Part shown: positions 8,652-20,876 of the stretch, in pieces
Numbering within the stretch: the stretch's first letter is position 1
Layout of the letters: every line of letters begins with the position of its first letter
From: Candidatus Latescibacterota bacterium
GTDB taxonomy: Bacteria > Latescibacterota > UBA2968 > UBA8231
Direction of reading: 5' to 3'
Length of the DNA: 64,000 bases
Assembly: GCA_965248265.1 (NCBI GenBank)
Contig: CBDFJF010000002.1
Location: 544,001 to 608,000 of the forward strand
The notes under the pieces: model-generated
Database searches by the model: none
What the model was told of the DNA's origin: nothing
Seen by the model: only the letters and a program-made list of their open reading frames with translations
Program-made: the position numbers and the translations under genes

Positions 8652-8748
8652 CTGCCAGATACTACGAGAAACAGAATAGCTACGGAAGGTGACGCCTGCT
8701 CGAACCGCTCGTTGCCAGTCTTGCTCGTAGTTGCGTACGCTATCTCCC

Positions 8749-11115
8749 ATGCGCACCTGGGTATGTATTTTCATCTGCCTTGTGTTGGTCGCAGCGGTCC
8801 ATTCAGTACAAGGCCCATCGAATGACGCCACCATCAGCGGCTTCGTGTACGACGCTGACAGTGGCGAGGTTCTGATAGGCTGCAACGTCTATCTCGAGGA
8901 CATCCAGCTGGGAACGACAACGAACCTGCACGGTTTCTACACCCTGCCGCGGGTTCCTCCCGGCGAGCACACGCTCAAATGCAGCCACGTCAGTTACGAG
9001 GCTACGTCGGAGGTTGTCACACCTTCAGCGCACCAGGCTCTGAGGATGGATCTGCATCTCACACAACGCGCAGTGGAGGCGGCAGGTGTGGTCGTGGTCG
9101 CGGCCGGCGACCAAGGACTGCAGCAGAAATCGATTTCCAAACTGGAGATTTCAGCCGCCCGGATCGATCAGATCCCCCAGGTCGTGGAGGCGGATCTGCT
9201 GCGGTCCCTGCAGACCCTTCCCGGGATCGTGCCGGTTTCCGATTACTCGTCGGCACCCTACATCCGCGGTGGAACACCTGATCAGAATCTCTACCTCGTC
9301 GACGGCACGGACGTCTACAATCCAGAGCACGCCTTCGGCCTGTTCTCCATTTTCAACACCGACGCACTCAAAAAAGCGGAGGTGTTCAAGGGCGGATTCG
9401 GTGCTCAGTACGGCGGACGGCTCTCGTCCGTTCTCAACATCACCCACCTCGACGGCAACAAGAAGGCCTTTGAGGGATCGGCCGCCATCAGTCTTCTGTC
9501 CGCCAGGACGACACTGCAGGTGCCACTGCGTGACCGCGGTTCACTCTCGGCTTCGCTGCGCCGGACCTACTTCGACCAGACCGTTGCCCGCGCCATGGAC
9601 GATATCCCGCCGTACTACTTCTGGGACGGCAATTTCAAGGCCTTCATCGACATCGATAAGACCAACAAACTTACGATCAGTGCTTTCGGCGGCCGCGATT
9701 TCCTCGACTTCACGCTGAACAGCGATGCAGTAGAAGAAGTGGGTCTGCAGTACGGTTGGGGCAACCGCACCGGCAGCGTGCGGTGGACCAGGGTCTGGAC
9801 GCCCAAGCTGTTCGGCAATCTGTGGATAACCGGTAGTCGCTTCGACTCAAAGCTGGATCTCAACCAGGTGATCGGCTTTCGCGAGACCAATGAAGTGTCA
9901 GACGTGACGTTCAAGGGGGATCTCGAATACACTCATTCCCCCGAGCTCAGCAGCCGGTTCGGTTTCGAACAGAAGTACCTGCGGGTCGCGTATGAGCAGC
10001 GGTTCCCCGACGCGAGGACGGACATCACCAAGGATCCGACGCACTACACCGGCTACGGGACGGTGCTGCTGACGTCGGGAGTACGCTGGGAGGCCGAACT
10101 CGGTGCGCGCTACCACTTCTTCGACTCGGACAAGAATTTCAGCGCCCTGGCGCCGCGGGCAGCGCTCACGTATCGACTGACTCCGGGCAGCAACATCAAA
10201 GCAGCCACAGGGATATATCATCAGTACCTGAATCGAATCCCCAGGGTCTTCATCGCCGACATCTGGACGACGGCGAACGCATTTCAACGCGGCTCGAAAG
10301 CCCGTCACTTCGTACTCGCTTACCATCAGGAAGTGGGCGATCGCTTCGAGTTCGAAGTGGAGGGGTATCACAAAGACTACGACCACATCCACGTCTTCAA
10401 TGAGGCGTTCCTGGCCGCGGTCACGACCGATATCCACGAACAGGGCGTTCCCGTGTTCACGGAAACGGTCGGCCTGTTCCATGAAGGAACCGGTGACACC
10501 AGGGGGGTTGAGGCTCTTATAACAAAAAGGCGCGGCCTGCTCTCGGGTTGGCTCGGTTACACGCTGACGCAAACGGAGTATGCCTTCCCGACACTCAATG
10601 ACGGCACGGGATTCGCACCACGGCATGATCGGACTTCGGTGGTGAATGCGGTTGCGCGGGTCGATTGCAATCAGATCACTGCGCTCGCCAGTCGATCTGG
10701 AGAAGCAACGGAGGGCAACGGCAAATGGTTTCTCGATCTGAACTTCGTCTACACATCCGGACAGCCGATAACCCAGCCGGAGTCGGGCTACGTGGCGCGG
10801 ACAGTCCCTGACGCGGATGGAGCGACGAATCTCTTCACCGGTAGCGTGCGGGACTTCGTCGTTCTGCCAGGACAGATAAATCAGTTCAGGTTACCGCCCT
10901 ACGTGCGCCTGGACGTGAGTTTGAAGTACAAGACGCGCCGCCAGGGCATGGACTGGACGGCGTACGTTCAGGTGTTCAACATCGGCAACCGTCGCAATAT
11001 CTGGTTCGTGCAGTACGACGATGACAGCAGGGGCGGCTTCGACGTCGTACAGGACGTGGACACCGTGCCGATGTTTCCCATCCTGCCGACCCTGGGGGTG
11101 CACGTTGCGTTCTGA
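8749..11115 (+). CDS. TonB-dependent receptor with N-terminal carboxypeptidase-regulatory-like domain
   Basis: Signal peptide; TISGFVYDADSGEVLIGCNV; plug motifs EADLLRSLQTLPG, YIRGGTPDQNL, KGGFGAQYGGRLSSV; RLPPYVRLD; terminal Phe. Confidence 0.9.
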   Translation: MRTWVCIFICLVLVAAVHSVQGPSNDATISGFVYDADSGEVLIGCNVYLEDIQLGTTTNLHGFYTLPRVPPGEHTLKCSHVSYEATSEVVTPSAHQALRMDLHLTQRAVEAAGVVVVAAGDQGLQQKSISKLEISAARIDQIPQVVEADLLRSLQTLPGIVPVSDYSSAPYIRGGTPDQNLYLVDGTDVYNPEHAFGLFSIFNTDALKKAEVFKGGFGAQYGGRLSSVLNITHLDGNKKAFEGSAAISLLSARTTLQVPLRDRGSLSASLRRTYFDQTVARAMDDIPPYYFWDGNFKAFIDIDKTNKLTISAFGGRDFLDFTLNSDAVEEVGLQYGWGNRTGSVRWTRVWTPKLFGNLWITGSRFDSKLDLNQVIGFRETNEVSDVTFKGDLEYTHSPELSSRFGFEQKYLRVAYEQRFPDARTDITKDPTHYTGYGTVLLTSGVRWEAELGARYHFFDSDKNFSALAPRAALTYRLTPGSNIKAATGIYHQYLNRIPRVFIADIWTTANAFQRGSKARHFVLAYHQEVGDRFEFEVEGYHKDYDHIHVFNEAFLAAVTTDIHEQGVPVFTETVGLFHEGTGDTRGVEALITKRRGLLSGWLGYTLTQTEYAFPTLNDGTGFAPRHDRTSVVNAVARVDCNQITALASRSGEATEGNGKWFLDLNFVYTSGQPITQPESGYVARTVPDADGATNLFTGSVRDFVVLPGQINQFRLPPYVRLDVSLKYKTRRQGMDWTAYVQVFNIGNRRNIWFVQYDDDSRGGFDVVQDVDTVPMFPILPTLGVHVAF

Positions 11116-12052
11116 TCATATAAAACCGCCGACTGCGATCGCTGTCGTCGTCTTGTTGCTGTGTACGCTGGGTTTGATATCCTGTGGCGAGCCCAGCATC
11201 GTGGCCTCGAAGGGTGACTCGCAGCCAAAGCTGGCCATTCAGGGCTACCTCCTTCCACAACAGCCCGTGAGTGTCCTCATAACGAAGACATTCCCGCTCG
11301 ATCCCGCCGCTTCGATCAACAAGTTCGATCTGCTGATTGAGGACGCGTCCGTCGTGTTGGAGGATTTGACTCAGGGTGCAAGCTATCCATTGAGCTACAA
11401 CCATGAGACGATCGTGTACGAATACGCCGGTGATCAGGATCTGACCATCGTCCACGGTAGCTCCTACCGGCTGCAAGTGGAAGCGACTGTGGGGGGTGAG
11501 TCGCTGCGGGCGAGCACGACGACGACCGTGCCGCAGGCCGGTTTTGCCGTGGTCGAAGAGCAATCCAGACTGGGTCAGCTGCGTTACCGGGAACGTGAGG
11601 GCACTGGTGATGAGTTGAAGCATTTCGAGATTGCCTTCAGTCGTTCCCCAGGGATCGACTTCTACGTGCTTTCGATCAAGGCGTTGGATGCGTCTACATC
11701 GAGTTACATTTACGACAATCCATTTACGAAAAACGACAGTGCAGACGTACGGTTCTTCTTTCGTGAGTTGGTGTCCGCGTACGAATGGGGGCAGAGTCTG
11801 CCGACCGACCCCGACCGAGAACCGGTGGTCTCGATCCAGTCGATACGGTGGAGAGCGCTGCAGTTCTACGGCCGTTACCGGGCGATCATCTATGCCGCCG
11901 ACGAGAACTTCAAGGATTTCTTCCTGACCCATTCGACGACGCAGGAGCTGGACGGGAACTTCCACGCGCCCACCTTCCACATGGAGGGGGATGGCGTGGG
12001 GGTGTTTGGATCCGCCATCGCCGATACGGTTTTCTTCGAGGTGCTGCAATGA
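11105..12052 (+). CDS. DUF4249-like lipoprotein, partner of the TonB receptor
   Basis: Probable TTG start overlapping the receptor stop; hydrophobic segment ending in lipobox LISC; PKLAIQGYL and C-terminal GDGVGVFGS typical of DUF4249. Confidence 0.7.
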   Translation: MRSDHIKPPTAIAVVVLLLCTLGLISCGEPSIVASKGDSQPKLAIQGYLLPQQPVSVLITKTFPLDPAASINKFDLLIEDASVVLEDLTQGASYPLSYNHETIVYEYAGDQDLTIVHGSSYRLQVEATVGGESLRASTTTTVPQAGFAVVEEQSRLGQLRYREREGTGDELKHFEIAFSRSPGIDFYVLSIKALDASTSSYIYDNPFTKNDSADVRFFFRELVSAYEWGQSLPTDPDREPVVSIQSIRWRALQFYGRYRAIIYAADENFKDFFLTHSTTQELDGNFHAPTFHMEGDGVGVFGSAIADTVFFEVLQ

Positions 12053-12067
12053 TACCCAGACGGAATC

Positions 12068-12118
12068 ATGGCCATGATCGGTATGACGGGGTTGCTGGCT
12101 GCGCTCATCAAGTTATGA
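12068..12118 (+). pseudogene. Short hydrophobic C-terminal remnant (DUF1640/CCDC90-like tail?)
   Basis: Reads MAMIGMTGLLAALIKL*, resembling a C-terminal membrane anchor; no upstream body. Confidence 0.25.
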
Positions 12119-12158
12119 CCCGACGGGTCGCCGCCCGCCGATCTGTGCAGGGGCAACG

Positions 12159-14117
12159 GTGACCAGCCACTTTCTGCGCCCAATTCCCGTGCTGGTTATG
12201 GCGGTTGCGACAAGCGTGGCGCCGCTGAGGGCAGCCGACCTTCCCGACGACATCTTTCCCGACGACATCTGGCCCGAATCATGGTTCCAACCACCCGAGC
12301 CTGCCTCTGAAGCAGGAATAGCTCGCTTTTTCGAGTCGCCAATGCTGGCGGCTAAAGCGGCGGCCGGTACTCTGCCGCCTCTGGTGCAACGCTTACCCCA
12401 CGATCCCTTCGTCATTGAGCCGGCAGACGAAATCGGCAGGCATGGCGGCACCCTGCGTTGTTTTGGCAAGGACGACTCCGTCGTGCGCAGCCTGGAACCG
12501 CCACTGATCATGGATCCGCAGGTGAGCGGCATCCTGCCAAATCTGGCTGAGAGCTGGCGCTACAGCGAAGGAGGCAGAGTCCTGACGCTACGGTTGCGGT
12601 CGGGCCTGAAATGGTCTGATGGCCACTCATTCACCTCAGCTGCCTTCCTGTTCTGGTTTCAACATATCCTGTCCAACGAAGAGCTGAACCCGGCCATGAG
12701 TCCGCGTTGGATCGGAGCAAGCGTAACCGCACCTGCGTCTGAGACCGTGCGTTTCGAGTTTGCCGAGCCGCATCCCTACTTCATCAACAAACTGGCACAT
12801 CACGGCAACAGCTTTTACACACCAGGGCATTTCTTGCAAGACTACCATCCCGCTTTCGTCGACTCTCAGGAGTTGGATGCCAGTGCCGAGCGCGAGGGGT
12901 TTATCGGCTGGACCGCCTACTTCAACGCGGTGCGCCGGGAGGGCATGGCGGACCCTGCCGGCACGCCGACCATGAACGCGCATGTTCTGGTGAAGAAGTC
13001 GCCGATCATGCACGTGTACGAGAGAAATCCCTATTACCCGAAGATCGATCCTGCCGGGAACCAACTGCCTTACGTGGACAGCATTCGAGTGATGCTGGTC
13101 AAGAACAAGGAAGTGATAACGGCGCGCACATCCACGGGACAGATGCACTTTTCGGCGAACGGCCTGGCTACCCAGGACATCCCGCTGTTCAAGCTGGGCG
13201 AGCAGGCGAACGATTTTCGCACATTGATCTGGAAGCGGTTGCATGGCGTCGACGTGGTCATCCAGCCCAACCTGACGTCACCCGATCTCGAATTGCGAGC
13301 CATCTTCCAGGATTTCCGCTTCCGCCAGGCTCTGTCCATCGCGATCAATCGCGACGAGATCAATTCGGTTGTCTATTTCGGCAAGGCGACGCCGCGCCAG
13401 CTCCACGTCATCCCGTCGAGCGTGTTCTACAAGGAGGCGTACGCCCGTGCCTACATCGACTACGACCCGGTCACGGCACATCGGCTGCTGGATGACATGG
13501 GTCTGTTCGACAATGACGGGGACGGTATCAGAGAGAAGCCCTCGGGTGAGCCTCTCAGCCTGACACTGGAATGGCTCGACATCGAGACCCCCAAGGGCAT
13601 TACCATGGAGCTGGTTACCGAGTACTGGCGTGATGTCGGCATTCAGCTCAATACCAAACAGGTGACGAGCGGTCTCCAGGGCACGCGGGCACGCGGCAAC
13701 ATGATGGAGATGACGCTGTGGCACGCGGATCGCACCAGCGACATCCTGTTTCCCTCTGAGCCATTGTGGTTTGTGCCGATGAACAAGGGGTTGATGGAGT
13801 GCCACTGGGGGTTGTGGTCGGACTGGTACCTCAGCGACGGGGCGAGGGGCGAGGAGCCACCGCCGGATGTCATGCAGTTGATCGACTGGTGGACGGAGAT
13901 GTCTACGGCGCCGGACGCGCAACGCCGGGTATGGTTGGGCAAGCAGATCCTGCGTTCCCAGGCGGAAAACCTGTGGTCGATCGGTACGCTGGGATTGGCC
14001 CCGCAACCCGTGGTCGTGCACAACAGCCTGCGCAATGTGCCGAAGCAGGGCTACTGGGGCTGGGACAATCGCTGGAGCCTGCCGTACCATCCCGAGACCT
14101 GGTACCTGAGGAAATAG
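12159..14117 (+). CDS. ABC transporter substrate-binding protein, family 5 (oligosaccharide/peptide type)
   Basis: ESPML...LPPLVQRLP, GRHGGTL, PNLAESW, LRSGLKWSDG, RNPYYPKIDPAGNQLPY, FRQALSIAINR. Confidence 0.9.
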   Translation: MTSHFLRPIPVLVMAVATSVAPLRAADLPDDIFPDDIWPESWFQPPEPASEAGIARFFESPMLAAKAAAGTLPPLVQRLPHDPFVIEPADEIGRHGGTLRCFGKDDSVVRSLEPPLIMDPQVSGILPNLAESWRYSEGGRVLTLRLRSGLKWSDGHSFTSAAFLFWFQHILSNEELNPAMSPRWIGASVTAPASETVRFEFAEPHPYFINKLAHHGNSFYTPGHFLQDYHPAFVDSQELDASAEREGFIGWTAYFNAVRREGMADPAGTPTMNAHVLVKKSPIMHVYERNPYYPKIDPAGNQLPYVDSIRVMLVKNKEVITARTSTGQMHFSANGLATQDIPLFKLGEQANDFRTLIWKRLHGVDVVIQPNLTSPDLELRAIFQDFRFRQALSIAINRDEINSVVYFGKATPRQLHVIPSSVFYKEAYARAYIDYDPVTAHRLLDDMGLFDNDGDGIREKPSGEPLSLTLEWLDIETPKGITMELVTEYWRDVGIQLNTKQVTSGLQGTRARGNMMEMTLWHADRTSDILFPSEPLWFVPMNKGLMECHWGLWSDWYLSDGARGEEPPPDVMQLIDWWTEMSTAPDAQRRVWLGKQILRSQAENLWSIGTLGLAPQPVVVHNSLRNVPKQGYWGWDNRWSLPYHPETWYLRK

Positions 14118-14120
14118 GCC

Positions 14121-15104
14121 GTGGCTTCTTACATCACCCGGCGTCTGCTGGGAATGATACCGACGCTGTTCCTCATCTCCGTGATCAGCTTCGTGCTGAT
14201 ACAGCTGCCACCCGGAGACATCATCGAGTCCACCATCCAGGATTTGCAGCAGCAGGGCCAGCACGTCTCCATCGAGCGTATCGCGGCGATCAGAGCCATG
14301 TACCATCTGGATGATCCGATGCCCATTCAGTACGTCCGCTGGATCAGCGGCTTCATGCGCGGAGACATGGGCTACTCCCTCGTTTACCAGCAGCCGGTGA
14401 ACCAACTGATCAGCGAGCGTTTGCTGCTCACGGTGTTGGTGGCCCTGGGCAGCGTGCTGTTCACCTGGTCACTGGCGTTGCCGATCGGCATCTATTCTGC
14501 GGTAAGACAGTATTCGCTGCTCGATTACACGATGACGGTGTTTGCTCTGCTCGGTATGGCCACGCCAGGGTTCATGCTGGCCCTGCTCATCATGTACGGT
14601 GCCCATAGTTGGTTCGGGATCAGCGTCGGCGGGTTGTTCTCGCCTGAGTTCATCGACGTGCCGTGGACGCTGGCACGGGTCGCGGATCTGCTCAAACATA
14701 TATGGGCCCCCATGGTTGTACTGGGTGTGTCCGGTACGGCCGGCATGATCCGCATCATGCGCGCCAACCTTCTGGATGAACTCAAGAAGCCATACGTGGT
14801 CACAGCCAGGGCCAAGGGTTTGCGGCCGGCCAGGCTGATCATCAAATACCCACTGCGGCTCGCCATCAACCCGTTCATCTCGACCATTGGCTGGATGCTG
14901 CCGGCCCTGTTCTCGGGCTCGGCCATCGTCGCCGTGGTCATGGACCTGCCCACCACCGGACCTTTGCTGCTGGAGGCGCTGATGAGTCAGGACATGTACC
15001 TGGCCGGCAGCTTCATTCTCATCCTCAGTACCTTGACCGTCATCGGCACGCTGATCTCCGATCTGCTGCTGGCGGTCGTGGATCCGCGCATCCGTCATGA
15101 GTGA
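14121..15104 (+). CDS. ABC transporter permease (DppB/OppB type)
   Basis: YITRRLL...LPPGD, EAA loop RANLLDELKKPYVVTARAKG, C-terminal DPRIR. Confidence 0.92.
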   Translation: MASYITRRLLGMIPTLFLISVISFVLIQLPPGDIIESTIQDLQQQGQHVSIERIAAIRAMYHLDDPMPIQYVRWISGFMRGDMGYSLVYQQPVNQLISERLLLTVLVALGSVLFTWSLALPIGIYSAVRQYSLLDYTMTVFALLGMATPGFMLALLIMYGAHSWFGISVGGLFSPEFIDVPWTLARVADLLKHIWAPMVVLGVSGTAGMIRIMRANLLDELKKPYVVTARAKGLRPARLIIKYPLRLAINPFISTIGWMLPALFSGSAIVAVVMDLPTTGPLLLEALMSQDMYLAGSFILILSTLTVIGTLISDLLLAVVDPRIRHE

Positions 15105-16197
15105 ATCGCGCAAGCCTGATCTGGAGACGGCGTCGCAGTGGCAGCTGATGTGGGTGCGTTTCAGGCGTCATCGGCTGGCCATGATTTCAGCTACGGTGTT
15201 GTTCTTCCTATACCTGCTCGCCGCCTTTTGTGAGATTGCAGCGCCCTACGGGCCCAGCCAGCGCAACCCCCGCACCATCCACTGCCCGCCGCAGTCTCTG
15301 CGTTTCATCGACGATGATGGAAAAGTCCACCTGCGCCCGTTCGTATACGGCTACAAGCTCTCCGTGGATCCAGAAACCTGGCGACGTGAGTACACCCCTG
15401 ACCCGCAGGCGCGTTTCCCGGTGCGGTTCCTGACTGACGGCGCGCCCTACGAATTCTGGGGTCTGATCCCGGGGCGCCTGCGACTGTTTGGCACGCCAGA
15501 CGGCGGCTACATCCACCTCTTCGGCACGGACAAGCTGGGACGGGATCTGTTCAGCCGGATTCTGTACGGAGGAAGGGTCTCGCTGACCCTCGGACTGCTG
15601 GGTGTGCTGCTGACGTTCGTCTTCGGTATCATCCTGGGAGGGGTGGCGGGCTACCTGGGTGGATGGGTCGACAACCTGACCCAGCGATTGATCGAGGTTA
15701 TTCAATGCATGCCCCAGCTGCCGTTGTGGATGGCCCTGAGCGCGGCGCTACCTGCGGGATGGTCGGGCATCAAGGTCTACTTCGGCATCACTGTCATTCT
15801 CTCCTTCCTGGGGTGGACGGGGTTGGCGCGGGTGGTGCGGGGCAAGTTTCTGTCGCTGCGTGAGGAAGAATTCGTGGTCGCAGCCAGGCTGCTTGGCGCC
15901 GGGCGCCGGCGTGTCATCTTCCGCCACATGCTGCCTTCGTTTCTCAGCCACATCATCACCTCGGCCACCCTGGCCGTCCCCGGGATGATCCTCGGTGAAA
16001 CCGCGCTCAGTTTTCTGGGGATCGGGTTGAGGCCTCCGGTAGTAAGCTGGGGAGTGTTGCTGCAACAGGCGCAAAACTACCAGGCCGTGGTGATGACGCC
16101 ATGGCTGTTGCTGCCCGGCGTATTCGTTATACTGGCCGTGCTGGCTTTCAATCTCATCGGTGACGGGTTGCGGGATGCAGCTGATCCCTACAACTGA
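15097..16197 (+). CDS. ABC transporter permease (DppC/OppC type)
   Basis: HLFGTDKLGRDLFSRILYGGRVSL, SLREEEFVVAARLLGA, FNLIGDGLRDAADP. Confidence 0.92.
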   Translation: MSESRKPDLETASQWQLMWVRFRRHRLAMISATVLFFLYLLAAFCEIAAPYGPSQRNPRTIHCPPQSLRFIDDDGKVHLRPFVYGYKLSVDPETWRREYTPDPQARFPVRFLTDGAPYEFWGLIPGRLRLFGTPDGGYIHLFGTDKLGRDLFSRILYGGRVSLTLGLLGVLLTFVFGIILGGVAGYLGGWVDNLTQRLIEVIQCMPQLPLWMALSAALPAGWSGIKVYFGITVILSFLGWTGLARVVRGKFLSLREEEFVVAARLLGAGRRRVIFRHMLPSFLSHIITSATLAVPGMILGETALSFLGIGLRPPVVSWGVLLQQAQNYQAVVMTPWLLLPGVFVILAVLAFNLIGDGLRDAADPYN

Positions 16198-16397: not shown

Positions 16398-17249
16398 ATG
16401 GAGAATCACGTGAGGAAAATCGCAACGATCGCGCTGGCCACCGCGATGCTGGCTGGCGGAGCGTTCGCCGGCGACAACCGGAATGCTACGTTCACGATTA
16501 CCAGTTCGACGACTCTGGCTGGAGTCGGGGCCAGCGAAATCGTAGAGATCAGCATCGGTACAGACAACTGGGTCAACGTGCAGCAGGCAGACGTCACGGT
16601 CCAGGTATCGCCACCGGCTCATTTTGATGTTACGGTCGCCGGCGTCGTCCTCGGCGAGAATTTGCCGGATGCCAGTGTCTTTCCGCCTGGAAACTGGCGC
16701 GCCCTGGGTGGCCTACTGGTGGAGGGAACGAACAACCAGATCAGGGTCGGCTTCGCGCTGCTGGATCCTGATCCAGAGGCTGAAGGGCATACTGGCGCAG
16801 CCGACTTCAGGATCCTCCTGCGCACATCCAATACTCTTACCACTGACACAGAAGCAAGCGTCGTCGTCACCCAGGTCTCCCTGGGGCCCGGTGCGTTCGG
16901 GCGTGATATCGTCACGGTGAATGAAACCATCTTCATCAATCCGGCCACTCCCACTGCGGTGAGCGAGTTGCCCGGGGCCGTGCCGAATTCGTTCGAGCTC
17001 GAGCAGAACTATCCCAATCCGTTCAACCCGTCGACGAACATACGCTTCAGCGTACCGCATGAATCACCCGTACTGGTTCGAGTTTACGATGCACTTGGAA
17101 AGGTACAGGAGACCCTGGTCGATGAGGTCCTGCAGGCGGGGCGCTATACCGTCGATTTCCACGCCGCCGGCCTGGCGAGTGGGATGTATTTTTATCACAT
17201 CGAGGCGCCCGGGTTCACGAGTACGCGGAAGTCGCTACTGCTCAAGTGA
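16398..17249 (+). CDS. Secreted beta-rich protein with T9SS/FlgD-like C-terminal sorting domain
   Basis: AAGGAG RBS; signal peptide ending AFA; C-terminus FELEQNYPNPFNPSTNIRFS...LASGMYFYHI...RKSLLLK, closely related to that of 4604-6700. Confidence 0.85.
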   Translation: MENHVRKIATIALATAMLAGGAFAGDNRNATFTITSSTTLAGVGASEIVEISIGTDNWVNVQQADVTVQVSPPAHFDVTVAGVVLGENLPDASVFPPGNWRALGGLLVEGTNNQIRVGFALLDPDPEAEGHTGAADFRILLRTSNTLTTDTEASVVVTQVSLGPGAFGRDIVTVNETIFINPATPTAVSELPGAVPNSFELEQNYPNPFNPSTNIRFSVPHESPVLVRVYDALGKVQETLVDEVLQAGRYTVDFHAAGLASGMYFYHIEAPGFTSTRKSLLLK

Positions 17250-17290
17250 GGAGACCGATAGCCTGATCGGCGCGTCCCATCGCATTCTAT

Positions 17291-17329
17291 AACAAAAAGA
17301 GCCGGACGCGCACTTGGCGTGTCCGGCTC
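17291..17329 (-). terminator. Intrinsic terminator (minus strand)
   Basis: Minus strand GAGCCGGACACGC-CAAGT-GCGCGTCCGGCTC followed by TTTTTGTT. Confidence 0.8.
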
Positions 17330-17361
17330 CCCTCTATTGCTAGAGGCCATTTACGGCGGTC

Positions 17362-17397
17362 TCAGGCGCCGCACCTCTCTATATTCGGCATCATCAT
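17362..17397 (-). CDS. Mini-ORF MMMPNIERCGA (9-11 aa depending on ATG used)
   Basis: Perfect AGGAGG (17401-17406) followed by three tandem ATGs and a TGA at 17362-17364. Confidence 0.35.
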   Translation of the reverse strand: MMMPNIERCGA

Positions 17398-17505
17398 TTT
17401 CCTCCTGTTCTTGCCCCTTGGCGAAACGCGTTTTCGCCGGGCCTTGGGTGGAGGTGGTCGTGCGTCATCCGCACACACTGGTCTGCAGCCAGCTTCACTA
17501 TAGGT

Positions 17506-17533
17506 TTATCGGACCAACCATGGCTTCCTTTAG
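17506..17533 (-). promoter_or_regulatory. Sigma-28 (FliA/SigD)-type promoter
   Basis: Minus strand CTAAA-GGAAGCCATGGTTGG(15 nt)-TCCGATAA; matches TAAA-N15-GCCGATAA with one mismatch and exact spacing. Confidence 0.7.
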
Positions 17534-17636
17534 TATGTCGTTTTTCGGCGCGGCCGACAAGAGCTTGAAGCGCACCCTGAGGAGATGAATGATAACCGGT
17601 AAACCGCGAGTACTCCTGACGTGAGAGGACAGACTC

Positions 17637-20600
17637 TTAGGCGGACACGGCTGGCCAATCCGACCGCTCGATCAACTCGTTGAATCCGCGGATTTCCTTG
17701 TCGATGACAGCTTGCAGGCGTCGGGCGACCTCGTCGACGTCGGTGGTGAGTTCCTCGAACAGCTCAACGGTCTGTTTCGTCGGTGCGTCGTCGGCGGCTG
17801 CGACCACGCTGATGAGTCCCCCCACCCTCGTGCACACACGCACTGGCAGCCTCAAGGCATCGATTGGACCCCGTTGCCCCGCCTGCACGAGCTCAGCCTC
17901 GATGGCTTCCAGCTCGCTGTTCAAAGCGGCGGCCGCTTCGACGATTGCCCGCCCTTCAGACGAGTCGCCTTCCCGAGCACGGTTGGACCATTCCGACACC
18001 TGCCGCTGCAGGCGACGCAGGCGATTCACCAGGTTGTTAGCCTCCGAGAGTTTGTCGCGGATGCGAACCCACAAGGCGAATTGGGCCTCGAAGTCCGCGG
18101 GTGTGGCCCTAACCCGCGGATCGTGTCTGATTTCGAACGGCTGCGTCAGTACCATGTTACCGACTTCCAACTTGACTTCATAGAGACCCGGGACAGCGAG
18201 GGGGCCATTGGCATGGCGCCGTTCGGCAAGCAAGGCCTCAGGCTTGGGCTTCAACGGGCTGTCCTCGGTGATCCGCTCGGCGCTGGGGTAGCGCATGTCC
18301 CAGACGAACCGGTTCAAGCCGGCCGCTGCGGGAACGAAGCGATCGTCTGCAGCATCCGCATCGTCAGCATCATCGTCACCCGACGCATCATCGTCGCCCG
18401 ACTCGGTGCGGCTCGAAAACGTTTTGATGGTGTCGCCGGCAGCGTCCATGAAGCTGAGCGAAATCGATTCGTCGACATCCTCACTGAGGCGGTAGTAGAT
18501 GACGGCTCCATGCGGCGGATTTTCGCCAGCATCCAGAAAGGATCGGGTCCATTCGCCGTCTTCGGTGGTGTGGTCACGGTAGGCGGCGTGTGCACCGAGT
18601 GCCACCATGTAGCCGATGTCGCCTTCCTTATTGGGCCGAATGGCTCCTACTGCCCAGTTGAGCCAGCGGCGGTACGCGGGCGCCGGCGCGAACAAGTGGG
18701 CAGCCGCAGTGAAGGCTGGATCCCGGCAGAGCTGGCGCAGGGGTGTGAGGTCGTCGAGGATCCAGAACGAGCGGCCATGGGTGGCGGCTACCAGGTCGGC
18801 GTCCTTGACGGTGAGGTCGTAGACGGGAACAACAGGCAGGTTGGTTTGCAGCTTCTGCCAGCTTTGGCCGCTGTTGAGGGAGACGCATACTCCCGTTTCC
18901 GTGCCGACATACAACAGTCCAGCGCACTCCGGGTCTTCACGCACCACGCGGGTGATTTCTCCCTCCGGAAAATCACCGCTGATATCGGTCCAGCTCTTGC
19001 CCCGATCCGTCGTCTTGAGCAGGTAGGGGTGGTAGTCGTCCAGTTTGTAGCGGGTGGCCGCCACATAAGCTGTGTCCGCGTCGTGTCTGGATGGCTCCAC
19101 GCACCCGATCCGGGCTGATTCGGGTAGACTCTCCGGCGTTACTTCAGTCCAACTGCCACCTGCGTTCCCGGACACATGGATCAAGCCGTCGTCTGTGCCT
19201 GCCCACAGCAGTCCCTTTTCGACCGGCGACTCGGCGAATGCGAATACGGTCCCGTAGGTTTCGGCCCCGCTTTGATCGATGGTGATGTCGCCGCCGGAGG
19301 CCAGTAGGGTCGCAGGGTCATTTCTGGACAGATCCGGAGAGATCGCCTCCCAGCTGGCGCCCTCGTTCGTCGTGCGAAAGACAACGTTGCCGGCCACGTA
19401 GAGGGTGTTGGGATCGTGTGGTGAAAAGCAGATCGGAAAGGTCCAGGAAAAGCGGTACTTGAGATCCTTCGGGTCCCAGCCGAAGTACTCCTCCGGCCAC
19501 ACGGAAACCAGACGAAGCTGTCTGGTGTGGTCATCATAGCGCTGCAGGACCCCAGCGCCGCCAGGTGAGCTACCGGTGGATCCGATGTAGACGATGTTGG
19601 CGTCATCGGGATGCACGGCGACATCGCCGCTCTCACCCGTGCCCGGTGTTTTGCAGTGGGTCCACAGAATGACGCCGTACTCGGTGGCGCTGGGCACGCT
19701 GACGCTGGAATTGTCCTGTTGGGTGGCGTAGACGCGGTAGGGAAACTGGTTGTCGGTGTCGAGCCGGTAGAACTGGGCGGTAGGCTGGTTGAATATCGTC
19801 GACCAGGAAGTGCCGCCGTTCCAGGAGACGCAAGCGCCACCGTCGTTGCCCTGGACCATACGGGCGGGATTGCGCGGGTCCAACCACAGGTCGTGGTTGT
19901 CGCCGTGCGGCGTCGTCACTTCCACGAAGGAGGAGCCGCCATCCGTGGACTTCCACATCTGCAGATTCAGTATGTAGACGGTGTCGCGATCCTGCGGGTC
20001 GGCAAACACGTGGCAGTAGTAGAACGGCCGATGGATGAGGTCCCGACTGCCGCAGACCAGTTCCCAAGTATCGCCACCGTCATCCGAGCGGTACAGGCCG
20101 GCGTCCTCGGCTTCGATGATGGCCCAGATCCTGTCGGGATCGGCCGGAGAGACGGCGACGCCGATTTTTCCTTTTAACCCCTTGGGCAACCCTGGGTTAT
20201 CGGTGAGCTCGGACCAGGAGTCACCGCCGTCGACGGAGCGCAGCAGACCGCTGTCGGGACCACCACTCGATAGGGTCCAGAAGGTGCGATAGGCCTGCCA
20301 TACACTGGCGAAGAGCCGGCGAGGGTTGTTGGGATCCATCGACAGATCGATGGCGCCCGCCCGGTCGCTGCGAAAAAGGATATTCTCCCAGTCTCGCCCA
20401 CCGTCACGGGAGCGAAACACACCGCGCTCATTGTTAGGACCAAAGGCGTGGCCGAGAGCCGCTACGTACACCAGGTCAGCGTTACTCGGATGCACTCGAA
20501 TCTTGCTGATATGCCGGGTCTCGGCGAGGCCGGCGTGGATCCATGACGCGCCCCCATCCTCGGAACGATATACACCGTCACCGTAGGAAACGTTGCCCCG

Positions 20601-20876
20601 AATCGTCGACTCACCGGTGCCGGCATACATGACATTGGGGTCGGCTTCGGACACGGCCAACGCACCGATGGCGGCGCTGTTGAAGTAGCCGTCTGAGATG
20701 TTCTCCCAGTAGCTGCCGGCGTCCGTCGTCTTCCACACGCCGCCGGCACAGGCGCCGAAATAGAAAACGGCCTGGTCGCGCGGATGACCGGCCACCGCTA
20801 CCACGCGGCCCCCGCGGGGTGGGCCGATGCAGCGCCACCGGAGTGCCTGTAGATCTGTTTGCGCAATTTGCGTCAA
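17637..20876 (-). CDS. BNR/Asp-box (VPS10/sortilin-like) glycosyl hydrolase
   Basis: WRCIGPPRGGRV, GGVWKTTDAG, many SxDGGxxW Asp-boxes, HGDNHDLW, ATHGRSFWILDD, GLNRFVWDMRY; TTG start after GAGGAG; no signal peptide. Confidence 0.9.
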   Translation of the reverse strand: MTQIAQTDLQALRWRCIGPPRGGRVVAVAGHPRDQAVFYFGACAGGVWKTTDAGSYWENISDGYFNSAAIGALAVSEADPNVMYAGTGESTIRGNVSYGDGVYRSEDGGASWIHAGLAETRHISKIRVHPSNADLVYVAALGHAFGPNNERGVFRSRDGGRDWENILFRSDRAGAIDLSMDPNNPRRLFASVWQAYRTFWTLSSGGPDSGLLRSVDGGDSWSELTDNPGLPKGLKGKIGVAVSPADPDRIWAIIEAEDAGLYRSDDGGDTWELVCGSRDLIHRPFYYCHVFADPQDRDTVYILNLQMWKSTDGGSSFVEVTTPHGDNHDLWLDPRNPARMVQGNDGGACVSWNGGTSWSTIFNQPTAQFYRLDTDNQFPYRVYATQQDNSSVSVPSATEYGVILWTHCKTPGTGESGDVAVHPDDANIVYIGSTGSSPGGAGVLQRYDDHTRQLRLVSVWPEEYFGWDPKDLKYRFSWTFPICFSPHDPNTLYVAGNVVFRTTNEGASWEAISPDLSRNDPATLLASGGDITIDQSGAETYGTVFAFAESPVEKGLLWAGTDDGLIHVSGNAGGSWTEVTPESLPESARIGCVEPSRHDADTAYVAATRYKLDDYHPYLLKTTDRGKSWTDISGDFPEGEITRVVREDPECAGLLYVGTETGVCVSLNSGQSWQKLQTNLPVVPVYDLTVKDADLVAATHGRSFWILDDLTPLRQLCRDPAFTAAAHLFAPAPAYRRWLNWAVGAIRPNKEGDIGYMVALGAHAAYRDHTTEDGEWTRSFLDAGENPPHGAVIYYRLSEDVDESISLSFMDAAGDTIKTFSSRTESGDDDASGDDDADDADAADDRFVPAAAGLNRFVWDMRYPSAERITEDSPLKPKPEALLAERRHANGPLAVPGLYEVKLEVGNMVLTQPFEIRHDPRVRATPADFEAQFALWVRIRDKLSEANNLVNRLRRLQRQVSEWSNRAREGDSSEGRAIVEAAAALNSELEAIEAELVQAGQRGPIDALRLPVRVCTRVGGLISVVAAADDAPTKQTVELFEELTTDVDEVARRLQAVIDKEIRGFNELIERSDWPAVSA

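Follow-up and report, generated by a model that had tools for sequence, protein, structure and literature searches.

Organization of the Locus

Here, we describe an element found on the minus strand of a 64,000-nt stretch of genomic DNA (the window, throughout this text) of Candidatus Latescibacterota bacterium, a member of a phylum that is, to our knowledge, uncultured and known only from metagenomes. The assembly to which the window belongs, designated G000, comprises 7.3 Mb in 2 contigs and is 92% complete; coordinates given without a contig name are positions in the window. The element is a transcription unit that spans positions 17532-17292 (-) and is very probably an independent gene for a stand-alone, FliA-class regulatory RNA, structured and ~205 nt long. 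It lies between a Sortilin/BNR-repeat gene encoding 1079 amino acids (17637-20876, minus strand), whose stop faces the element, and a convergent gene for a protein with a type IX secretion system (T9SS) tail (16398-17249, plus strand). Homologues are carried by two relatives: G021, which belongs to another genus, and G011, an 84%-complete metagenome-assembled genome (MAG) whose contig ends inside the element. The initial annotation had read the region as a stand-alone sigma-28-type unit producing a ~205-nt structured RNA with a sequestered Shine-Dalgarno (SD) sequence and a mini-open reading frame (mini-ORF). Upon re-reading of the sequence, every part that it listed was located on the minus strand where it had been placed, and this core reading is upheld.

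The unit begins with a FliA/sigma-28-type promoter (17506-17532, minus strand, as are all parts listed here) that consists of a CTAAAG -35 element (TAAA at 17532-17529), a 15-nt spacer and the -10 element TCCGATAA at 17513-17506. Upstream of the -35 element, a conserved A-rich block (17533-17561), at the far edge of which the blastn match to G021 begins, may constitute an UP-like element. The first structure within the predicted RNA is a 5' stem-loop, GCUGG-CUGCAGA-CCAGU (17477-17493), present in the minimum-free-energy folds of both G000 and G021; its sequence is identical in the two, which thus provide no covariation. It is followed by the hairpin GUGCG-GAUGA-CGCAC (17460-17474), recognized both in the sequence and by folding, with GGAUGA in its loop as candidate CsrA site 1 (mean probability of being unpaired 0.83 in G000 and G021). 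Next comes the anti-SD motif CCUCC (17450-17454), which is conserved in these two genomes and paired with the SD. The anti-SD/SD helix encloses the hairpin GCCC-GGCGA...UCGCC-GGGC (17413-17442; core GGCGAAA-ACGCG-TTTCGCC at 17438-17420), the GGCGAAA/TTTCGCC stem of which is only 5 base pairs long in G021 and in one RNA variant (from RNA run X2, see below), where the A-U pairs by the loop are lost. The SD itself, AGGAGG at 17401-17406, contains two overlapping GGA triplets that make it candidate CsrA site 2; it is invariant between G000 and G021 and reads AAGGAGG in G011. Downstream of it lies the mini-ORF MMMPNIERCGA-stop (17362-17397; ATGATGATG-CCG-AAT-ATA-GAG-AGG-TGC-GGC-GCC-TGA). RNAalifold analysis of the three copies places its UGA stop in the apical loop of a long hairpin (17342-17378) with an inner stem at 17372-17353 and an outer stem, AGAGGU/GCCUCU, formed by 17378-17373 and 17347-17342. 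The outer stem is mutually exclusive with the hairpin CCUCUA-GCAA-UAGAGG (17331-17346), which has a GNRA loop and is invariant in the three genomes, again with no covariation. The unit ends with an intrinsic terminator (17292-17330) made of the stem GAGCCGGACACGC...GCGCGUCCGGCUC at 17330-17299 and a U-run at 17298-17294.

The full-length folds of G000 and G021 agree with each other: two 5' hairpins are followed by the CCUCC/GGAGG helix that encloses the third. The 256-nt stretch folds with -95.7 kcal/mol (z = -3.53), and only 1 of 200 shuffled sequences folds equally well. The sequestration of the ribosome-binding site, proposed initially, is borne out in silico, since the anti-SD is fully paired (probability of being unpaired 0.0 in G000 and G021) and the SD is mostly paired (0.17). 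In the long hairpin, the three genomes differ at one inner pair (G.U, A-U or G-C), and an outer pair is either U.G or C-G. A scan of 16900-17900 for sigma-70 promoter and terminator consensus sequences yielded 0 sites; our guess is that the long bulged stem and the loop of the terminator fall outside the narrow rule of the scanner. An 89-amino acid ORF antisense to the unit (17319-17588, plus strand) was discarded, as it is broken by 1- and 2-nt indels between G000 and G021.

Conservation of the Element and Its Independence from Neighboring Genes

A blastn search with a 391-nt interval returned homologues in 2 of 40 relatives, the same 2 being found among 75 other genomes of the family. The G021 copy is 89% identical over 17561-17294, i.e., from ~29 nt upstream of the -35 element to the end of the U-run, and the G011 copy is 80% identical over 17426-17280. 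The flanks are unrelated in all three genomes: the G021 copy is preceded by a divergent aldehyde dehydrogenase gene and followed by repeat-rich non-coding DNA, the G011 copy faces a convergent xanthine/uracil permease gene, and in none of the three genomes does a same-strand gene follow the element. The element, with its own promoter and terminator, is thus conserved as a block in three genomes with unrelated neighbors. The non-coding DNA downstream of the G021 copy (L006:4848-5662, ~0.8 kb) contains segments that recur often in genomes G008 and G041; these are dispersed repeats of 45-130 nt with 73-93% identity, which places this copy beside a repeat-rich variable region.

The unrelated neighborhoods bear directly on the proposal that the sequence is a cis-acting part, i.e., either the 3' untranslated region (UTR) of the Sortilin/BNR gene or, for a downstream gene, a leader or a riboswitch (malK-I, for instance). 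In its favor, the best Rfam match is malK-I (RF03069) at 17280-17446, where the resemblance lies around GGUGCGGC...GAGAC...GCCGUAA, and one RNA contig extends to 17525. With 22.9 bits, the match stays far below the gathering score of 60.3 (E = 0.28 when 3 kb were searched), a malK-I search of the whole genome gave nothing at E <= 10, no same-strand gene lies downstream in any of the three genomes, and the neighbors are different in each. Moreover, a location in the 5' UTR of a malK gene is part of the definition of malK motifs (PMC5737381), and here no malK gene but the terminator and then a convergent gene lie downstream. Membership in malK-I was rejected on score and context. The cis-acting explanation is thus already largely refuted and appears extremely improbable. 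The two RNAs do share an SD-like AGGAGG followed by three hairpins, as well as short identical stretches. Within 17280-17446 (-), the AGGAGG is located ~100 nt before the 3' end of the malK-I model and the shared stretches are GGUGCGGC, GAGAC and GCCGUAA, which raises the question of whether malK-I itself contains an internal SD and a short frame. No Rfam family reached its gathering score anywhere in the window.

It was also suggested initially that the locus may be what is left of a flagellin-like gene with its coding body deleted. In its developed form, this explanation states that the element is a decaying remnant of a flagellin 5' end, in which a terminator directly follows the promoter, the leader and the first few codons, and which is transcribed but has no function of its own. 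The promoter class and the style of the SD are those of flagellin genes, several flagellins, like the mini-ORFs of G000 and G011, begin with MP..., and the distribution of the element is patchy (2 of 75 family genomes). Against this, no flagellin leader or gene of G000 resembles the element in a blastn comparison, which leaves the deletion scar unsupported; the block is 89% identical between genera with unrelated flanks, and its leader is better conserved than the mini-ORF. The initial annotation had named full-length genes at orthologous loci as evidence against its reading; at none of the three loci is the mini-ORF replaced by such a gene. The same compact architecture is seen in all three copies, where a scar would be expected to vary. 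Even within the genus of G021 the neighborhood varies, as G008 and G041, which belong to it, do not keep it. We consider a remnant very unlikely.

Wider searches returned the same few copies. Blastn over the entire G000 genome with word sizes 7-9 recovered the element itself and chance matches of <= 35 nt; a 25-nt blastn match in genome G083 lies inside a coding region and was set aside as chance. A pattern scan of the genome collection found only the same two MAGs, and a pattern scan of metagenome contigs gave 5 loci, 0 of which had the surrounding features and all of which are attributed to chance. We also built a covariance model of the 3' half of the element (R1), with which 151 genomes of the phylum were searched. 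Scores of at least 123 bits were reached by the three known copies alone, the next best match having 33 bits. Among the 8 weaker full-length R1 matches inspected, those in G140, G158, G150, G153, G097, G024 and G013 read as ends of longer reading frames followed by terminators. The eighth (30.1 bits) is at C66:39995-40114 (L036:1501-1620, minus strand) of G028, a genome from the same taxonomic class. Here, an SD and an AUG introduce a frame of 10 codons (MIATTRRWVV), and a long hairpin, GAGGUGGG...CCCACCUC, and a terminator are also present; the upstream sequence is TATAAT-like and not sigma-28-like. This locus may be distantly related to the element or may match by chance.

The Promoter and the Flagellar Regulon of the Genome

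The sigma-28 consensus consists of a -35 element TAAA and a -10 element (G)CCGATAA ~15 nt apart. A strict pattern of this type, TAAA-N15-[GT]CCGATAA, occurs just 4 times on both strands of the 7.3-Mb G000 genome, and the promoter of the element is one of these occurrences; in G021, it differs by a single base, located in the spacer. In G000, a related sequence, yTAAAG-N16/17-CGATA, is located upstream of five flagellin genes and of a gene tentatively assigned as flgM on the basis of its N-terminus alone. We trained a weight matrix on these six sites, leaving out the site of the element, and scanned both strands of the genome. The promoter of the element scored 25.4 bits and ranked 4 genome-wide. 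The six training sites and two others scored at least 23.6 bits and were followed by sites with 21.5, 20.4 and 19.2 bits and a tail; outside the training set, just two sites score above 22 bits. By its sequence, the promoter belongs to the flagellin/flgM class of G000. Based on the likeness of this class to the sigma-28 consensus and on the genes that it precedes, we infer that it is read by FliA. The other high-scoring site outside the training set, and the best one (26.3 bits), is at C2:3344034 (-) and precedes a gene for a 215-amino acid protein with a signal-peptide-like N-terminus, a candidate for an unannotated late flagellar-class gene.

Taken together, the z-score of the fold, the rarity of the promoter pattern, the genome-wide rank of the promoter and the retention of the block in two other genomes put this arrangement of parts beyond chance.

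As the initial annotation listed the lack of a FliA-like sigma factor among the findings that would speak against it, and named csrA, fliW and flagellin genes as ones to look for, these genes were sought, and all are present in G000. A FliA-family sigma factor is encoded at C2:4096068-4096736 (TIGR02479, 269.4 bits against a cut-off of 189.6). A single copy of csrA (89.5 bits) is found at C2:3834581-3834739 and is adjoined by fliW at C2:3834918-3835277; the pair lies beside a flagellin-family match (C2:3835945-3836355) in a flagellar cluster. The genome contains 10 Flagellin_N matches in total. Hfq (PF17209) was not found in G000, with its completeness of 92%. FliA is also encoded by G021 and by G008 and G041, which do not carry the element, and is split or partial in G011, where it appears as two adjacent matches of 172.9 and 92.5 bits (C23:14434-15104). 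The permease gene beside the G011 copy is likewise split, into two overlapping frames (L007:2918-4226); both disruptions could be frameshifts or assembly errors in this incomplete MAG.

Sequences of the Element in RNA Libraries

Some sampled words of the element are contained in 10 RNA runs from 8 studies. Contigs from four marine or seawater metatranscriptome runs of four studies (X1-X4) were aligned to 16900-18100, and all four runs yielded short contigs that lie wholly within the unit and are 97-99% identical to it. X1 gave a contig of 173 nt covering 17332-17504 and X2 one of 164 nt covering 17340-17503, each with 1 mismatch. Three contigs came from X3: 17321-17435 (115 nt, 1 mismatch), 17406-17525 (123 nt, 3 mismatches) and 17406-17476 (79 nt, 1 mismatch). 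The X4 contig covers 17387-17498 (112 nt plus 15 adapter letters, 1 mismatch). In these four runs, G000-like cover is absent from 17064-17309 and 17556-18100, with the exception of a small X3 piece at 17720-17801; this absence is not counted as evidence. Matches at 16981-17041 were rejected, since they are T9SS-tail sequences of other organisms, the flanks of which are unlike those of G000.

Transcription had been predicted to start near 17498. The contigs of three studies stop at 17498-17504, next to the predicted start, and we take this interval as the approximate 5' end of the RNA, which agrees with the prediction; the variant X3 contig of a relative, which reaches 17525, does not. The contig ends are thus a weak hint of a transcription start.

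The natural variants found in these contigs are informative with respect to structure and frame. The X3 variant 17393 A>T changes the second ATG to AAG without disturbing the frame. At 17436, a G>A variant converts a C-G pair into U.G, and a variant at 17426 breaks a loop-adjacent A-U pair; in G021, it is the next pair down this stem that is broken.

The Mini-ORF

The AUG that is best spaced from the SD is the one at 17394, which leaves 10 codons. The peptides that would be read from the best-spaced AUG are MMPNIERCGA in G000, MMGYLKRHGA in G021 and MPRHKERCGA in G011. In spite of indels, all 3 homologues retain the SD, the AUG, the open frame with its 10 codons and a stop that falls within the hairpin loop. 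The first six codons have strongly diverged, with ~50% nucleotide divergence in the N-terminal codons; conservation is limited to the C-terminal R(C/H)GA, the codons of which form the 5' arm of the conserved hairpin. The non-coding leader is much better conserved than the codons of the mini-ORF. Judging from these patterns, the initiation site and the frame look selected and the peptide does not; a translated leader-type ORF and a structural spacer would fit the data alike. A selenocysteine read-through of the UGA, which would give a C-G-A-U motif, was considered and rejected, as the downstream frame would cross the terminator and is not kept in G011.

The preservation of the frame is an argument for regarding the locus as a small-protein gene or a dual-function RNA, which would produce a late-flagellar, 10-residue peptide ending with (E/K)R(C/H)GA under the control of the anti-SD. 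A strong SD, a well-spaced AUG and a stop accompany the frame in every homologue, ten codons are maintained through indels and divergence, the natural variant at 17393 alters a codon and not the frame, and a divergent paralogue in the same genome (G000b, described below) ends with ...VRCHA-stop in the equivalent frame. Against this, RNA structure explains the conserved residues equally well, given their position in the hairpin arm, the N-terminal residues are not conserved, and G000b has AUC at the start position. Ten residues would also be very short for a functional bacterial peptide. We regard a peptide gene as rather improbable.

A Possible Mimic of Flagellin mRNA

The unit is a real, new, apparently expressed and lineage-restricted FliA-class small RNA of marine Latescibacterota, the function of which we can only infer. 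The RNA probably tunes flagellum production instead of encoding a normal protein. The explanation that we favor is that it titrates CsrA by mimicking the 5' end of flagellin mRNA, and we assign to this full statement, mechanism included, a probability of roughly 40%. FliA would switch on the RNA together with late flagellar genes. The RNA would resemble the 5' end of a flagellin mRNA in having the same class of promoter, a CGGAUG hairpin loop upstream and a strong, GGA-bearing SD, and it would bind the FliW-type CsrA encoded beside fliW. CsrA, and perhaps ribosomes too, would thus be drawn off flagellin mRNAs. The mini-ORF would act as an initiation site whose occupancy counts, the peptide itself being of no consequence, and the opening of the SD/anti-SD helix may be the regulated step.

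Several observations are consistent with this mechanism. The CGGAUG motif recurs in 2 of 5 folded flagellin leaders of G000, and the SD CAAGGAGGU, which resembles that of the element, is present in 4 of 10 upstream regions of flagellin-family genes; the element and the GGA-rich flagellin leaders thus share the promoter class, the CGGAUG motif and an CAAGGAGG-type SD. As in leaders of the flagellin type, one GGA is exposed in an upstream loop (17469-17465 and neighbors) and another is found at the SD, AGGAGGA. The mimic is favored because these leader features are shared, because fliW and csrA are adjacent and because a precedent exists in Campylobacter jejuni flaA mRNA, which is repressed by CsrA and also titrates it (PMC4894983).

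Other observations weigh against the mimic. GGA is not enriched in the element, with 5 occurrences in G000 (5.6 expected) and 6 in G021 (5.2 expected). These counts exclude a CsrB-like sponge with many sites and leave room for a single two-site arrangement at most. The GGA of the SD is mostly paired (0.17), whereas the SD is open (~1.0) in three GGA-rich flagellin leaders. The homologues number only three, and among their 29 pairs RNAalifold found 0 that are changed on both sides. The variant X3 contig extends upstream of the -10 element and so the 5' end is not fixed, and contigs in general reveal neither strand, nor true ends, nor abundance, while an RNA library may hold DNA. The divergent paralogue G000b is devoid of the GGA hairpin upstream of its SD.

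A more ambitious version of the proposal, which we consider doubtful, is that the RNA is a purpose-built flagellin-mRNA mimic, made by FliA together with flagellin, that acts as a two-state switch and would be the first RNA known outside Proteobacteria to antagonize a CsrA of the FliW type. In the closed form, the SD and the anti-SD would mask each other; CsrA or a ribosome on the SD and mini-ORF would free CCUCC to silence other Shine-Dalgarno sites. In this version, the RNA would be part of a small set of FliA-driven, CCUCC-bearing RNAs of Latescibacterota, one of which spans 7 of 18 genera.

Related RNAs in the Same Genome and the Base-Pairing Alternative

Two further units of G000 resemble the element, and neither matches an Rfam family. 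The first is the divergent paralogue, G000b, at C2:2041744-2041984 (-) (L046:745-985), which the R1 model matches at C2:2041757-2041865 with 22.8 bits. Its promoter, ATAAAG-N17-CGATAAAG, is ~85 nt upstream of the modelled part, scores 15.1 bits with the promoter matrix and is one of just 51 loose sigma-28-like patterns in the genome. The parts follow in the same order as in the element: the anti-SD GCCUCC and a hairpin precede the SD, which is followed by a frame of 11 codons that ends with VRCHA and has its stop in a hairpin loop, and by a terminator. The differences are the start position, occupied by AUC and not AUG, and the missing GGA hairpin. No homologue of G000b was found in 75 family genomes.

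The second, which we refer to as the sibling unit, is at C1:2363749-2364019 (+) (L047:750-1020 / L050:1495-1775). It is a sigma-28-type, non-coding unit of ~215 nt that contains CCUCC three times and has a strong terminator. Of the 75 other genomes of the family, 17 carry it, and these represent 7 of 18 genera; its CTAAAG and CGATA blocks are invariant in 8 aligned copies. It is located ~0.9 kb upstream of a sigma-70-family gene, and its G011 copy is ~1 kb from a sigma-70-family match. The sibling unit supports the view that a real promoter class drives non-coding RNAs in this lineage.

The recurrence of CCUCC brings forward another way in which the element may act, namely as a base-pairing small RNA whose C-rich anti-SD segment, CACCUCCACCC, would pair in trans with the SDs of targets, e.g., CAAGGAGGU of flagellar genes. 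Its own SD would then be a mask that is lifted when a ribosome or a protein occupies the start of the mini-ORF. CCUCC is kept in G000 and G021, GCCUCC is found at the equivalent place of G000b, and the sibling unit, with its three copies and its broad distribution in the family, suggests that FliA-driven CCUCC RNAs are a habit of the lineage. Furthermore, forcing the segment from the SD to 8 nt past the stop to be single-stranded frees the anti-SD in the folds of both G000 and G021, and FliA-dependent base-pairing small RNAs are described for Escherichia coli and C. jejuni (PMC10578931, PMC11187230). However, in the unconstrained molecule the anti-SD has no probability of being unpaired, its complementarity to flagellin SDs (compared manually, with no target scan) ends at the 6-nt core that is common to any SD, and Hfq was not found in the 92%-complete genome. 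Base pairing in trans is, on balance, unlikely.

Comparison with Known Regulatory RNAs

The CsrA-titrating mimic that we favor has its closest counterparts in the flagellin leaders of organisms with a CsrA-FliW system, C. jejuni flaA (PMC4894983) and Bacillus subtilis hag (PMC6529632). Like the element, these have a late-class promoter, an upstream GGA and a GGA-bearing SD, and, like G000, the genomes in question have adjacent fliW and csrA (PMC4894983, PMC6529632). Unlike them, the element encodes 10 codons followed by a terminator and no flagellin, and it differs from the flagellin leaders of G000 itself in that its SD is masked by an anti-SD.

RNAs of the CsrB/RsmY type carry many GGA loops. 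The function that we propose for the element, titration of CsrA by means of GGA, is the same as theirs (PMC4894983, PMC7652899), but GGA is not enriched here (5 against 5.6 expected), which sets the element apart from such sponges.

Two sets of flagellar small RNAs are comparable in their regulation. CJnc170 (FlmR) of C. jejuni is a FliA-controlled small RNA in the flagellar hierarchy, and this bacterium uses FliW and not Csr small RNAs to control CsrA (PMC11187230). The element comes from another phylum, has an internal SD/anti-SD helix and a 10-codon frame, and is predicted from its promoter to depend on FliA. The small RNAs of the E. coli sigma-28 regulon are transcribed together with the regulon and modulate the level of flagellin and the number of flagella (PMC10578931). 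They are derived from UTRs, and Hfq is among the keywords of that paper, whereas the element has its own promoter and terminator in a genome where Hfq was not found.

Since the defining features of malK-I, CsrB-type and Hfq-dependent RNAs that we tested are lacking, the element is excluded from these classes; it is a sigma-28-class regulatory small RNA that is not malK-I, a CsrB-type sponge or an Hfq-dependent small RNA. In a full-text search of the literature, we found no RNA of this kind described for Latescibacterota. The flagellar-regulon small RNAs named in the papers cited here come from two Proteobacterial models, E. coli and C. jejuni (PMC10578931, PMC11187230), and the antagonists of CsrA described for organisms with a CsrA-FliW system are the protein FliW and, in C. 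jejuni, also flaA mRNA (PMC4894983, PMC7829508). The element is a candidate for a flagellar RNA of the late class in a phylum without cultured members, with near-identical sequence in ocean RNA libraries of several studies. The finding supplies a defined FliA promoter class for the lineage, and a compact RNA of ~205 nt is open to in vitro study without culturing of the organism. If the RNA performs ordinary fine-tuning, its description is a useful annotation; if it is a true CsrA decoy, it changes the view of how FliW-type Csr systems are controlled.

A scan of the whole window for tRNA and tmRNA genes found none. The plus-strand run at 8731-16197, which has no motility genes, encodes a TonB-dependent receptor-like protein, a DUF4249 protein, a family-5 solute-binding protein and the products of two ABC peptide-permease genes and is an ordinary context upstream of the T9SS-tail gene.

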